A stretch of DNA of 64,000 nucleotides from Candidatus Binatia bacterium (lineage in GTDB: Bacteria; Methylomirabilota; Methylomirabilia; Rokubacteriales; CSP1-6): contig DASPZZ010000273.1 of the NCBI GenBank assembly GCA_035635995.1, forward strand, positions 1,190-65,189, read 5' to 3'. Within the stretch, counting starts at the first letter, position 1, and every line of letters starts with the position of its first letter. The notes beneath the pieces are model-generated. The model saw nothing but the letters and a program-made list of their open reading frames with translations. It was not told the origin of the DNA and made no database searches. Made by a program: the position numbers and the translations under genes. Shown in pieces: positions 39,076-47,045 of the stretch.

Positions 39076-39669
39076 GTGCGCGGCCTCGAGCAGATCCCGT
39101 GGCTCTACGACGGGCTCTGCGCGGTGCTGGAGCGCGCCGGGCTGGCGCCCTGGCGGCGGTGGCTCGCGGCCGGCGCGCACGGGCGGACGCTCGACCTCGG
39201 GTGCGGAACCGGTCGCGGCCTGCCGCTCTACGGCCCGGGCGTCCGGGCGATCGGCCTCGATCCGGCGCGCGACTCGCTCGCGCGCGCCCGGCGCCGAGCG
39301 CCCCGCGTCCCGCTGGTGCAGGGGAGCGCCGAAGCGCTCCCGTTCCGCGACGGCGTCTTCGACACGGTGGTCTCGAGCCTCGTCTTTTGCAGCGTGCCCG
39401 AGCCCGCGCGCGGCCTCGCCGAGGTCAGGCGGGTGCTCCGCCCCGACGGACGACTCCGCATGCTCGAGCACGTGCGCTCCCGCAGATCGTGGAAGGCGGC
39501 GTTCCAGGACCGCGTTCAGCCGCTGTGGACGCGGCTCAGCGGCGGGTGCCACCCGAATCGCGAGACCGAGCACGCGGTCGAGACCGCCGGCTTCGTGATC
39601 GAGGCCGAGGGGCGCGTCGCCAGAGCCGACCTGCGCTGCTTCGCAGCGCGCCCGTCTCGTGCTCGCTAG
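39076..39669 (+). CDS. class I SAM-dependent methyltransferase (Methyltransf_11-like)
   Basis: Track ORF of 197 aa (GTG start), motif I LDLGCGTGRG, FDTVVSSLVFCSV. Its stop overlaps the stop of the convergent large-subunit gene (shared CTAG). Confidence 0.85.
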   Translation: MRGLEQIPWLYDGLCAVLERAGLAPWRRWLAAGAHGRTLDLGCGTGRGLPLYGPGVRAIGLDPARDSLARARRRAPRVPLVQGSAEALPFRDGVFDTVVSSLVFCSVPEPARGLAEVRRVLRPDGRLRMLEHVRSRRSWKAAFQDRVQPLWTRLSGGCHPNRETEHAVETAGFVIEAEGRVARADLRCFAARPSRAR

Positions 39670-41252
39670 AGATCGTTCCCGGAGTAGGACAGGTTGAAGG
39701 ACTTGTTGCAGAGGGGAAAGTCCGGGACGATGTTCTTGAGCACGGCGTATTCGAGCGCGGGCCAGTTCCGGAAGGACGGATCGACGACCTTGACGCGGCC
39801 GACCGAGGCGGGCCCGTCGGCCAGCGCCCAGTGCCAGACAGGGCCGCGCCACGCCTCGACCAGGCCGAAGGCATGGGCGCCCGCGGTGAGCGGCGGCAGC
39901 GGGACCCGCGTCGCTCCCTCGGCGCCGAGACCGACCGCCGTGCGAATGAGGCGCGCCGCCTCACGCGCCTCGTCGATCCGCACCATCGTCCGCGCCCAGA
40001 CGTCTCCCGTTTCGTAGACCGGAGCTCGCACGTCCATCTCGCCGTAGGCCGCGAACGGCGCATCGCGCCGGACGTCGGCATCGATTCCGCTCGCCCGCCC
40101 GACCAGTCCGACGACCTGCATCTCCGTCGCCGTTTGCGGAGTCAGTCGCCCCGTCCCCTGGAGCCGTTCGAGGACGGTCGTGTTGTCGAGGCAGAGGCTC
40201 GCGATCTCGACGAACTCGGCGACCAGGGCCTCCACGGTCGTCGCGGCCTCGAGCACGGGCGCCGCGGCGATCGGCCCGGTCACGCCGCCCGGCACCACGG
40301 CACCCCGGAGGAGGCGGTGGCCCGTCAGGCGCTCGTTGAGCCTCAGGAGCTCCTCACGGATCCGGAAGCAGTGAGCGTGCCCGAAGCCGAATCCGGTGTC
40401 GTTGACGATCATGCCGACATCACCGATGTGGTTGTAGATCCGCTCGAGCTCGAGCAGGACGACGCGGAGCCGGCTCGCTCGGGGCGGCAGGGTGCAGCCG
40501 GCCAGCGCCTCGAGCGCCTGGCAGTACGCGAGGACGTGCCCGACGCTGGTGTCACCCGAGATGCGTTCGGCGAGGGCCGGCGCCCGGTCGAAGGCAAGGC
40601 CCTCGAAGAGCTTCTCGGTGCCCTTGTGGACGAAGCCGAGTCGCGTCTCGAGGTTCACGATCGTCTCGCCCTCGACGCTGAAGCGGAAGTGACCGGGCTC
40701 GATGATCCCGGCGTGGACCGGCCCCACGGTGATTTCGAAGATGCCCTCGCCCTCGACGCGCCGGAACGGGAACGGCTCGCCCGCGTCGACGAAGTCCGTG
40801 CGCGGCACGGCGTCGCGGCGCAGGGGGTGATAGCCCTCCGGCCAGTACTGATGGAGCGCGAGTCGCCGGAGATCCGGGTGTCCCTGCGGGACCAGGCCGA
40901 ACAGGTCGTGGATCTCGCGTTCGAAGCGGCTGGCCGCGAACGAGCGCGTCGCGAGAGAGGCGAAGCGGGCCGCGGCCGCCGGGACCGAGGCGAGCACGGT
41001 CGCCGCCGGCGAGAGCGTCGGCGGCGCGAACACGTACGCGAGCGTGAAGTCACCGCCGGTGGCGCGCGTGTCCGCGGCGGCGAGGAACTGACAGCGGACG
41101 CCGAGCGTCGCCAGACGATCCGCGAGCGCGGGAATCTCCCAGGTGGGCAGCCGGCACTGGATCGCGCTCGTGGACGACGACGCCACGCTCGTGGCGCCGG
41201 CCTCGACGACGGCGCGCCGCAGTGAGTCCAGGACGATCAGCGCCGGCGGCAC
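39666..41252 (-). CDS. hydrogenase-related large subunit, fused NuoC/NuoD (HycE-like), Ni-Fe cysteine ligands absent (Ehr-type)
   Basis: Track ORF of 528 aa (GTG start). NuoC-like ...FEREIHDLFGLVPQGHPDLRRLAL...PLRRD. NuoD/HycE-like GPVHAGIIEPGHFRF. The L1 position reads ERISGDTSVGH. The protein ends ...CNKSFNLSYSGNDL, where DPCxxCxxR is expected. Confidence 0.85.
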   Translation of the reverse strand: MPPALIVLDSLRRAVVEAGATSVASSSTSAIQCRLPTWEIPALADRLATLGVRCQFLAAADTRATGGDFTLAYVFAPPTLSPAATVLASVPAAAARFASLATRSFAASRFEREIHDLFGLVPQGHPDLRRLALHQYWPEGYHPLRRDAVPRTDFVDAGEPFPFRRVEGEGIFEITVGPVHAGIIEPGHFRFSVEGETIVNLETRLGFVHKGTEKLFEGLAFDRAPALAERISGDTSVGHVLAYCQALEALAGCTLPPRASRLRVVLLELERIYNHIGDVGMIVNDTGFGFGHAHCFRIREELLRLNERLTGHRLLRGAVVPGGVTGPIAAAPVLEAATTVEALVAEFVEIASLCLDNTTVLERLQGTGRLTPQTATEMQVVGLVGRASGIDADVRRDAPFAAYGEMDVRAPVYETGDVWARTMVRIDEAREAARLIRTAVGLGAEGATRVPLPPLTAGAHAFGLVEAWRGPVWHWALADGPASVGRVKVVDPSFRNWPALEYAVLKNIVPDFPLCNKSFNLSYSGNDL

Positions 41253-41253
41253 C

Positions 41254-46173: not shown

Positions 46174-46682
46174 CAGCGGGGGCGGCCGATCGCCTCGAGG
46201 AGGCCGGCGAGGAGGGCCGCCGGCGAGGGAGGGCACCCGGGTATGACGGCGTCCACGGGCACCACGTCGGCGACGCCGCCCACGACCGCGTAGGATCCGC
46301 GGAAGAGGCCGCCGTCCCGCCCGCAGTCGCCGACGGCGACCACGAACTTCGGATCCGGCGTCGCCCGCCAGGTGCGCCGCAGCGCCTCGGCCATGTTGCG
46401 GGTCACCGGGCCCGTCACGAGCAGGCAATCGGCGTGACGCGGCGAGGCGACGAAGTGCACCCCGAATCGTTCGAGGTCGTAGTGCGGCCCCGTGAGCCCG
46501 CCGATCTCGAGCTCGCAGCCGTTGCAGGAGCCGGCGTCGACCTGTCGGATCGCGAGCGAGCGACCGAAGAGCCGAGCGATCTCCCAGGCCAGGCGCGTGC
46601 CGATCCGCTCGATCTCGCCGCCTCGAGCGACCGGCTCGGTGACGATGCCCGTGCGGAGCGCGGTCCGGAGCTGACGGAACAC
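46173..46682 (-). CDS. NuoB/HycG-like small subunit with [4Fe-4S] ligands
   Basis: Track ORF of 169 aa: IRQVDAGSCNGCELEI, SPRHADCLLVTGPVT, AVGDCGRDGG, IPGCPPSP (four Cys in the positions of the N2-type cluster). Confidence 0.9.
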   Translation of the reverse strand: MFRQLRTALRTGIVTEPVARGGEIERIGTRLAWEIARLFGRSLAIRQVDAGSCNGCELEIGGLTGPHYDLERFGVHFVASPRHADCLLVTGPVTRNMAEALRRTWRATPDPKFVVAVGDCGRDGGLFRGSYAVVGGVADVVPVDAVIPGCPPSPAALLAGLLEAIGRPR

Positions 46683-46685
46683 GGA

Positions 46686-47045
46686 TCAGCGTCGCGCCGG
46701 CCGGCGCGCCTCCTGACGGAGCTCGCGGAGCATGGTCTGGCTCCCGGCCAGCTGGTTGTTGAAGATCCTCCGCGCCAGGTCGAGGAGATCGCCGACGAGC
46801 GCGTCGCGGATCGTGTACCTGACCGTCGTGCCCTCTTTCCGGGCGGTCACGATGTTCTTGGCGCGCAGGACGGCGAGCTGCTGCGACACGGTGGACTGGT
46901 CCAGGTCGAGTCGGGCCTGGAGCTCCTGGACGCTGCGCTCGCTGTTGCGGAGGATCTCGAGGATCCGGATGCGGACCGGGTGGGCCAGCGCCTTGAAGAA
47001 CTCCGCCTTGAACGCCTGAAGGTCGGTCGACGGCGGGGCAGCCAC
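46686..47045 (-). CDS. ArsR/SmtB-family transcriptional regulator
   Basis: Track ORF of 119 aa (GTG start): FFKALAHPVRIRILEILRNSERSVQELQARLDLDQSTVSQQLAVLRAKNIVTARKEGTTVRYTI. Ends 3 nt before the small-subunit gene. Confidence 0.9.
   Translation of the reverse strand: MAAPPSTDLQAFKAEFFKALAHPVRIRILEILRNSERSVQELQARLDLDQSTVSQQLAVLRAKNIVTARKEGTTVRYTIRDALVGDLLDLARRIFNNQLAGSQTMLRELRQEARRPARR

Follow-up and report, generated by a model that had tools for sequence, protein, structure and literature searches.

Gene organization of the locus

We analysed a stretch of 64,000 nucleotides from a Candidatus Binatia bacterium (contig DASPZZ010000273.1 of assembly GCA_035635995.1; this whole stretch is called the window below) and focused on an operon that encodes a putative energy-converting hydrogenase-related (Ehr) complex. 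The operon runs from 47045 to 39666 on the minus strand and consists of seven abutting, co-directional genes, one for an ArsR regulator and six for structural subunits (Table 1). Counted from arsR, the junctions are TGAnnnGTG (3-nt gap), TGATG (1-nt overlap), three ATGA overlaps and TGAgGTG (1-nt gap). Seven tightly packed co-directional genes with start and stop overlaps had been reported in the preliminary description of this DNA, and both the coordinates and the overlaps agree with that report. All seven open reading frames (ORFs) are intact, the overlapping junctions are kept, and the G+C content at third codon positions (GC3) is of the coding type (about 0.9). On the 3′ side of the operon, a convergent gene for a 197-aa S-adenosylmethionine-dependent methyltransferase is located at 39076-39669 on the plus strand; its 3′ end overlaps that of the large-subunit gene by 4 nt.

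The proteins were assigned by Pfam and NCBIfam domain searches, with E-values from 1e-12 to 1e-197. The subunit identities proposed earlier are borne out by these domain hits, the HyfE-like subunit only at a sub-threshold level in NCBIfam (71 bits against a cut-off of 136). For this HyfE-like protein, the Pfam search gave no match, and a sequence search for a solved homologue found none. The NuoL/HyfB-like subunit matches the NCBIfam model for hydrogenase 4 subunit B with an E-value of 4e-197 (656.7 bits against a cut-off of 667). The four proteins encoded in the middle of the operon are polytopic. ArsR and the small and large subunits have no hydrophobic segments, except for one weak stretch in the small subunit.

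Table 1 Features of the ArsR-headed operon in the window
Feature	Position	Strand	Length	Domain match or other support
Intergenic region upstream of arsR; likely promoter and ArsR operator	47046-47134	-		Inferred from sequence
arsR, ArsR/SmtB-family winged-helix regulator, Rv0081 subfamily	46686-47045	-	119 aa	Pfam HTH_5 6e-12; NCBIfam HTH_metalloreg 8e-26
Small subunit EhrS (NuoB/HyfI/HycG-like)	46173-46682	-	169 aa	Pfam Oxidored_q6 4.6e-31; NCBIfam NuoB 1.4e-37
NuoL/HyfB-like antiporter-type membrane subunit with long C-terminal extension	44263-46173	-	636 aa	Pfam Proton_antipo_M 1e-54
NuoH/HycD/HyfC-like membrane subunit, interface of peripheral and membrane arms	43322-44266	-	314 aa	Pfam NADHdh 5e-45
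HyfE-like small polytopic membrane subunit	42684-43325	-	213 aa	NCBIfam HyfE (hydrogenase 4 membrane subunit) 1.2e-19
NuoN/NuoM/HyfF-like antiporter-type subunit	41254-42687	-	477 aa	NCBIfam hydrogenase 4 subunit F 2.8e-126; Pfam Proton_antipo_M 2.7e-52
Large subunit EhrL (fused NuoC-NuoD, HycE/HyfG-like)	39666-41252	-	528 aa	Pfam Complex1_30kDa and Complex1_49kDa

The large subunit has lost the [NiFe] ligands and keeps a polar pocket

The translation of the large-subunit gene contains the motif ERISGDTSVGH and ends with FNLSYSGNDL. Its best match in the PDB is Escherichia coli HycE (7z0s_E, 1e-67), followed by Nqo4 (7e-41), MbhL (2e-30) and MbsL (3e-27). In the alignment with HycE, the HycE segments RVCGICGFAH and DPCYSCTD lie opposite RISGDTSVGH and NLSYSGND, respectively. 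All four [NiFe] ligand cysteines are replaced in this alignment (C to S, C to T, C to S and C to G). The residue-by-residue comparison thus agrees with the earlier claim that the four cysteines are gone from the large subunit, and the motifs had not been misread. Furthermore, the protein has no C-terminal extension: it stops one residue past the position aligned to ...CTD of HycE. The HycE precursor is cleaved just after this ...CTD. As tests for a group 4 [NiFe] hydrogenase, we looked for the L1 motif (RxCGxCxxxH), the L2 motif (DPCxxCxx(H/R)) and a NuoI/HycF-type 2x[4Fe-4S] subunit, and the locus has none of the three.

Relatives of the large subunit were collected by an exhaustive protein search of 1.84 billion cluster representatives, which gave 1160 relatives at E<=1e-30. 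Among the 150 best matches, 116 representatives of 50%-identity clusters were full-length, and motifs were counted in these. The cysteines are entirely absent from 81 of these large subunits; 11 have one, and 24 have the first CxxC pair, all four cysteines being kept by 20 of the 24. The Cys-less large subunits share the motifs ER(I/V)SGD(S/T)xxxH and NKSFNLSY(S/A)GNDL. In addition, a scan of a genome collection confirmed at least 600 relatives, from which we retained the 80 best loci (numbered from L001 below). The replacement motifs are present in 76 of the 82 large subunits from these 80 loci and are conserved in hundreds of genomes.

The former [NiFe] pocket is now polar and strictly conserved, with S232-G-D234, N516-K-S518, S522-Y523, G525 and D527. 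Residues G233, D234, N516, S518, Y523, G525 and D527 are invariant in an alignment of 36 large subunits, and all of the 77 large subunits aligned from the genomic loci have N516, K517, S518, S522, Y523 and D527 (100% conservation). E185, a glutamate beside the former metal site, is kept by most relatives. No other part of the large subunit is conserved as strongly as this former active-site pocket. Because the Cys-less proteins share motifs that hold the invariant pocket residues, the replacement of the NiFe site is a conserved trait and not a sign of decay. We also compared the large subunit with Nqo4. The quinone ligands His38 and Tyr87 of Nqo4 correspond to I184 and G233, respectively. Therefore, the site in the large subunit is not a quinone site of the complex I type.

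The small subunit keeps the ligands for one cluster and the membrane arm keeps its charged residues

The small subunit possesses four cysteines for one [4Fe-4S] cluster, in the motifs GSCNGCE, VGDCG and PGCPP. Retention of these cysteines had been noted before; they are present in the translation, and almost all small subunits of the related loci conserve all four across phyla.

The conserved Glu and Lys residues with which complex I and Mbh translocate protons are kept in the membrane-arm subunits. In the NuoL/HyfB-like subunit, E106, K188, K266, K317 and E372 are 100% conserved among 63 relatives and K414 is 97% conserved. In the NuoN/HyfF-like subunit, E124, K213 and K332 are invariant across the family and E387 is found in 95%. 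When this subunit was aligned to MbhH, the Glu of transmembrane helix (TM) 5, the Lys of TM7 and the H...K motif were found to be kept, whereas TM12 has Glu in place of the Lys of MbhH. Glu in TM5, Lys in TM7, the H...K motif and Glu in TM12 are found in both antiporter-like subunits, and nearly all of these are invariant in about 60 relatives. The invariant charged residues of the NuoH-like subunit are E140, E192, E206, E212, E281, R36, K54, R131 and D199. The C-terminal domain of the NuoL/HyfB-like subunit (44263-44700) carries a further set of residues, W530, C532 (in WGCG), Y596, Y621 and Y624, which are conserved in 95-100% of the 63 relatives. These residues may contact the peripheral arm.

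Partner proteins were sought in the whole window. A six-frame scan of the 64 kb gave zero CxxCxxCxxxCP ferredoxin motifs and zero R.CG.C...H or DPC..C motifs, and Pfam annotation of the other large ORFs in the window gave zero hyp, formate dehydrogenase, NuoE/F/G or NuoI genes. Likewise, none of NuoA, HyfA, HyfH, HycF, HyfD and hycI is present in the window, and no counterparts of NuoJ/K were identified, the HyfE-like subunit apart. Because the genes abut, the operon itself has no room for a NuoI-type subunit. The previously claimed lack of a NuoI-type ferredoxin, hyp, formate dehydrogenase and NuoEFG genes is upheld by these scans, and a copy of any of them hidden elsewhere in the window is rejected.

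Distribution and gene order of related loci

The 80 best loci span Rokubacteria, Binatia, Chloroflexi, Nitrospirota, Acidobacteriota, Verrucomicrobiota, Actinomycetota, Bacillota, Omnitrophota, phyla of the Candidate Phyla Radiation (CPR) and archaea. Close homologues, with 72-99% identity, are found in Rokubacteria/Methylomirabilota metagenome bins, and the top genomic match, L001, is a Candidatus Rokuibacteriota metagenome-assembled genome (MAG) with 89%, which makes an origin of the window in this phylum very likely.

When the seven window proteins were mapped onto the 80 loci, two gene orders were distinguished; they are written here with the letters of the Nuo/Hyf counterparts, so that the order in the window is B-L-H-E-N-CD. 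We found this order in 34 loci, which belong to Rokubacteria, Binatia, Chloroflexi, Actinomycetota and CPR. An ArsR gene is directly upstream in 19 of the 34, and an ArsR gene of the same kind is divergent or just downstream in 4 more. The complete arrangement, ArsR-B-L-H-E-N-CD, recurs in Rokubacteria, Binatia, Chloroflexi and Actinomycetota. In contrast, many other Ehr lineages have the order L-H-E-N-CD-B and usually no ArsR head; this order was observed in Nitrospira, Acidobacteria, Verrucomicrobia, Firmicutes, Omnitrophota and archaea. A 2x[4Fe-4S] ferredoxin motif between CD and B, encoded before the small subunit, was found in some L-first loci only, and no CxxCxxCxxxCP motif was found within 10 kb on either side of the B-first loci. 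Thus, some Ehr subtypes appear to have a built-in ferredoxin domain, which the subtype of the window lacks. Two aspects seem to go modestly beyond published accounts, namely that an Rv0081-type ArsR combined with a B-first Ehr operon is common to at least four phyla, and that the B-first subtype is consistently without a NuoI-type domain.

In a rough neighbour-joining tree, which was made without bootstraps, the Rokubacteria-type clade that contains the window is sister to an actinobacterial clade that contains Rv0087. Five loci whose large subunits keep all four cysteines (L032, L041, L056, L069 and L077) form one clade, and a published remark on EhrL of Desulfotomaculum ruminis agrees with such a four-Cys clade. 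Another clade, which is mostly CPR (L026, L027, L037, L044 and L046; Daviesbacteria, Saccharibacteria and others), has GSTNACE, VGDDA and PGDPP in the small subunit. Three of the four [4Fe-4S] ligands are lost in this clade, and the pocket motifs of the large subunit and the membrane subunits are retained. The NuoB-like genes of these five loci lie about 4.1-4.8 kb into each locus. We found no mention of this loss of Fe-S ligands in a published paper on CPR.

Several loci differ in other ways. In L022, L024, L031, L047, L060, L062 and others, which have the order L-H-E-N-CD-B, one or two CxxCxxCxxxCP motifs are located just upstream of the NuoB-like gene and are apparently fused to it. Two complete L-H-E-N-CD-B Ehr operons stand in tandem in L051 and L067, both from Nitrospirota MAGs, and their large subunits belong to different clades. 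L018 (Rokuibacteriota MAG) has only the C-terminal two thirds of the large-subunit gene (7438-8514; residues 143-528) and no other Ehr genes nearby. This fragment adjoins homologues of the glycosyltransferase, VTT and NtrC genes of the window, and it may be the remnant of an operon deletion or rearrangement.

The same operon is present in Mycobacterium tuberculosis

We obtained a contig (L081) by a search with the sequence of M. tuberculosis Rv0081. Its gene series matches the known Rv0079-Rv0089 region, and its ArsR is identical to PDB 6jmi over the collinear residues. The series encodes ArsR, an Oxidored_q6 protein, a Proton_antipo_M protein (640 aa), an NADHdh protein (316 aa), a 220-aa protein, a second Proton_antipo_M protein (488 aa) and a NuoCD-like protein (491 aa). 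All seven genes are found in the window too, with identical order and orientation. From ArsR through to NuoCD, the identities between the two loci are 46, 58, 40, 53, 36, 44 and 46%, with BLASTP E-values of 3e-24 to 2e-127. The M. tuberculosis counterparts are Rv0081 (ArsR), Rv0082 (B), Rv0083 (L), Rv0084 (H), Rv0085 or hycP (E), Rv0086 or hycQ (N) and Rv0087 (CD). In the Rv0087-type protein, the first motif reads ERISGDTSAAH and the C-terminus is NKSFNQSYAGNDL; all four cysteines are absent. Thus, the M. tuberculosis large subunit carries the motifs ERISGD..H and NKSFN.SYAGNDL as does that of the window, and Rv0081 belongs to the same Cys-free subfamily as the ArsR of the window.

There are also differences between the two loci. 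The M. tuberculosis operon runs on into Rv0088 (SRPBCC) and adjoins Rv0079 and Rv0080 of the DosR regulon, whereas the window has the convergent methyltransferase gene and unrelated neighbours. The operator-like upstream sequences differ, and control by hypoxia and DosR is documented for M. tuberculosis only. Downstream of the M. tuberculosis operon, Rv0089 is 197 aa long, as is the methyltransferase of the window; the two have no homology at E<=1e-3. In an M. tuberculosis-type assembly, L082, a deletion removes most of the Rv0084-type gene through to the Rv0087-type gene. The Rv0081-type ORF encodes 140 aa in both L081 and L082 and departs from the PDB sequence after ...RVAV. The positions noted for these features are 6582-7004 in L081 and 9875-10245 in L082. 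This 140-aa variant looks like a frameshifted C-terminus and is present on 27 contigs.

The M. tuberculosis locus has been named a predicted formate hydrogenlyase (hycD/hycP/hycQ/hycE) and is treated as an EHR complex in PMC6728331. Rv0081-Rv0087 are induced by hypoxia and in macrophages and are repressed by Rv0081. In the preliminary description, the cotranscription with ArsR was presented as a testable lead; the same operon is already well studied as Rv0081-Rv0087. More recent functional studies on mycobacterial hycE and menaquinone were looked for in the literature, and none was found. The window adds no new Ehr type. One Ehr complex sits in the hypoxia-induced dormancy region of M. tuberculosis, and what the window brings out is that the exact M. 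tuberculosis arrangement is common to Rokubacteria, Binatia, Chloroflexi and other Actinomycetota. Because the arrangement is shared across phyla, the role of the enzyme is general and not pathogen-specific. The shared arrangement also suggests that the original role of Rv0081-like regulators is the control of Ehr.

Relationship to Ehr, Hyq, Hyf and complex I

Ehr complexes have been published since the mid-2000s and are widespread, and no function is assigned to them in the literature. The locus in the window fits the published definition, in that its large subunit lacks the four NiFe cysteines and in that NuoB-like, NuoH-like and Mrp/NuoL-type subunits are encoded in one cluster. Because this definition applies and because the locus clusters with Cys-less relatives from many phyla, we place it among the Ehr complexes. 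The Ehr complex of Geobacter sulfurreducens (EhrA-D, EhrL and EhrS; GSU0739-0745), which we compared by its description, has the same subunit set. Ehr complexes whose large subunit lacks the NiFe cysteines have also been described for Nitrospira, ammonia-oxidising archaea, Margulisbacteria and CPR.

Hyq of Azorhizobium caulinodans is likewise comparable by its description. Its six subunits (HyqB, C, E, F, G and I) correspond in type to those of the window, and it has no NuoI-type subunit. HyqG has neither CxxC motif, and HyqI has four Cys for an N2-type cluster; this is the same status as in the window proteins. However, the hyq operon (hyqRBCEFGI) has the activator HyqR and the order B-C-E-F-G-I, whereas the window has ArsR and the order B-L-H-E-N-CD. 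Moreover, three conserved Cys are reported for HyqG, whereas the large subunit of the window has at most one, C515 in PLCNKS. An H2:quinone activity has been claimed for Hyq; it is not established for any Ehr.

Hyf (hydrogenase 4) and Hyc (hydrogenase 3/formate hydrogenlyase) of E. coli are the best curated or solved relatives of the large, NuoL-like and NuoN-like subunits, and the subunit set of the window equals HyfI, B, C, E, F and G. In contrast to Hyf and Hyc, however, the large subunit of the window has no NiFe cysteines and no C-terminal extension, and there are no ferredoxin subunits, no HyfD and no formate dehydrogenase. The modules NuoB, C, D, H and L/M/N are homologous to those of complex I (NDH-1) and of Pyrococcus MBH and MBS, and the proton-pathway residues are conserved. 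The window has six structural genes as against 11-14 Nuo subunits in complex I, and NuoA, E, F, G and I are missing. The large subunit is closer to HycE than to NuoD, MbhL or MbsL.

The ArsR regulator and the upstream region

The best PDB match of the ArsR protein is M. tuberculosis Rv0081 (6jmi, 2.4e-20); the next best match has an E-value of 3e-13. The winged-helix HTH_5 fold is present, and the features that characterize sensors of the ArsR family, namely an ELCVCD-type alpha3, the Asp/His/Glu ligands of alpha5 and redox-active Cys, are all absent. The protein has zero Cys and a single His, which is in a structural AHP motif, and both the alpha3 and the alpha5 metal ligands are missing. The Ehr-linked ArsR proteins align with Rv0081 as a single subfamily. 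Metal-site residues are absent from all of them and Cys from most. The signature of this subfamily is KAEFFKxLxHPxRIRILE, a recognition helix with SxxSQQLxVLR and a conserved C-terminal helix. According to published work, Rv0081 has no metal site and does not bind metals; phosphorylation and formate have been proposed as its signals, and it is reported to be an autorepressor of its own operon. Because Cys and metal ligands are absent, as in Rv0081, sensing of metals or of thiol redox state by the ArsR of the window is unlikely, and its earlier description as a metal- or redox-type sensor is not plausible for this Rv0081-type protein. Instead, the regulator would respond to a non-metal signal, as proposed for Rv0081.

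Directly upstream of arsR, an AT-rich island of 36 bp (47046-47081) has 25% GC as compared with about 70% GC in the window. Its sequence is TTCTGTATATGGTAATACATTGATATAGTAATCTTC. TATAGT ends 7 nt ahead of the GTG start codon of arsR. This spacing would be in keeping with a leaderless transcript and with an operator that overlaps the promoter. In the Rokubacteria-type loci L002, L003, L006, L010 and L011, AT-rich elements of the form TTGAC(T/A)...TATAT are also present directly upstream of arsR. The mycobacterial loci share a different upstream element, TATCTGATAA(A/G)TTCTTCAA. A scan for consensus promoters upstream of arsR was empty, and a repeat search of the same region gave no clean inverted-repeat operator. 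The ArsR dimer probably represses the operon from this AT-rich promoter region.

Proposed function and alternative explanations

The best explanation of the locus is a six-subunit Ehr complex of the M. tuberculosis Rv0082-Rv0087 type, a pared-down machine resembling Hyf and complex I, and we hold this identification to be probable, with good confidence. The preliminary description had assigned the locus to the Ehr class, which is related to group 4 hydrogenases and to complex I and whose role is unassigned in the literature, and the domains, the ligand loss, the lack of NuoI and the published definition sustain that description. As the NiFe ligands and a NuoI-type subunit are both absent, the complex is not a hydrogenase of a known kind. 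Judging from its sequences, it is most likely a module that translocates protons or ions, has one [4Fe-4S] cluster and carries out no H2 chemistry. One specific scheme may be proposed for this module. A soluble low-potential donor such as ferredoxin would dock where NuoI normally sits and would reduce the single cluster. The cluster would then pass electrons to a membrane acceptor, probably quinone, at the interface of the large, small and NuoH-like subunits, and this redox reaction would be coupled, possibly reversibly, to proton or ion translocation. The scheme is tentative: we consider it possible, though somewhat more doubtful than probable. Three observations weigh against it. The canonical quinone ligands of complex I are absent, so that the sequence does not support quinone reduction. 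No gene for a donor or an acceptor is linked to the operon. In addition, the loss of Fe-S ligands in the mostly-CPR clade hints at a core function of the family that may be something other than electron transfer.

The last observation supports the main alternative, in which the complex is a redox-independent, Mrp-like cation/proton transporter and the peripheral arm with its cluster serves for sensing or gating only. This alternative is also favoured by the homology of the antiporter-like subunits to Mrp subunits and by a single cluster with no input module and no recognisable acceptor site; the five loci that lost three of the four cluster cysteines (L026, L027, L037, L044 and L046) keep the pocket and the membrane subunits. 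However, apart from these loci, conservation of the cluster cysteines extends across phyla and implies that the cluster is functional. Moreover, the pocket is conserved more strongly than any other part of the large subunit, and this suggests that it serves for chemistry or specific binding and is not a passive lid. We regard a transporter of this kind as unlikely. The pocket could be given more weight still. Together with E185, it may form an active or ligand-binding site for a chemistry that has not been described in this fold, and the Rv0081-type ArsR would then sense the substrate or product. This chemistry might be a nickel-free activation of H2, which has been claimed for Hyq, or a reaction that involves no redox step and is coupled to the proton-motive force. 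The pocket is retained even by the mostly-CPR relatives that have lost the Fe-S ligands. This idea is quite unlikely in our estimation.

If nickel-free H2 activation is taken by itself, the complex would be an endo-hydrogenase, that is, an H2:quinone oxidoreductase of the kind claimed for A. caulinodans Hyq. The identical set of six subunit types, HyqG without CxxC pairs and HyqI with four Cys speak for this kinship, as does the retention of E185 beside the former metal site by most relatives, and there is genetic and physiological evidence for H2 recycling from one laboratory. Nevertheless, no nickel-free, Fe-S-only H2-activating site is known in this fold, and the Hyq authors themselves term the catalytic site speculative. 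Moreover, the window has S232 where some relatives retain the Cys of the first ligand, and other authors class Ehr as non-hydrogenases. Thus, an endo-hydrogenase is very unlikely. A conventional Hyf/Ech-type [NiFe] hydrogenase with misread motifs, or a decaying and non-functional remnant of one, is more improbable than any of these and can practically be set aside. Among solved and curated proteins, HycE, HyfB and HyfF are indeed the closest relatives, and the five loci of the four-Cys clade (L032, L041, L056, L069 and L077) do keep all the ligands. In the window, however, all four Cys are replaced relative to HycE, and the replacements are conserved in hundreds of genomes; the alignment with HycE and the six-frame motif scans rule out a conventional enzyme. 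Decay is opposed by the intact ORFs, the preserved junctions and the GC3 of about 0.9, and the invariant residues argue for purifying selection.

Returning to the Ehr complex as a proton- or ion-translocating module, we see three leads on its function: the conserved polar pocket, the absence of NuoI from the subtype, and the loss of Fe-S ligands in the mostly-CPR clade. The conservation of the pocket and the Fe-S ligand loss are leads that are independent of this window.

Other genes in the window

The genes that flank the operon are conserved only in close Rokubacteria relatives. On this ground, a functional link of the operon to its neighbours, which encode a PhzF-like protein, a FIST protein, a methyltransferase, a glycosyltransferase, an RRM protein and a histidine kinase/NtrC pair, was rejected. 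Apart from these, the ORFs of the window have ordinary functions and include a kdp system, MgtE, an amino-acid permease, a BTAD/TPR regulator and a 2495-aa teneurin/RHS-like protein, as well as an aminotransferase, PanE, ADH, Nramp, DUF420, further methyltransferases and glycosyltransferases, TatA, LexA, an HD-GYP-like protein, DNA ligase, CCA/polyA polymerase and an SBP.

The 2495-aa ORF (19120-26607, plus strand) contains PKD, TIG, teneurin TTR/FN-plug/NHL, YD-shell and RHS repeats and is of the teneurin-like/RHS toxin type. The GC content of its region is 62-66% as compared with about 70%, and the region may be a horizontally acquired island. At 3852-11902, there is a complete-looking kdp potassium-uptake locus, in which the sensor kinase KdpD is encoded on the minus strand and KdpA, a KdpB-sized gap and KdpC are on the plus strand. 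The kdp locus is followed by the gene for the magnesium transporter MgtE.

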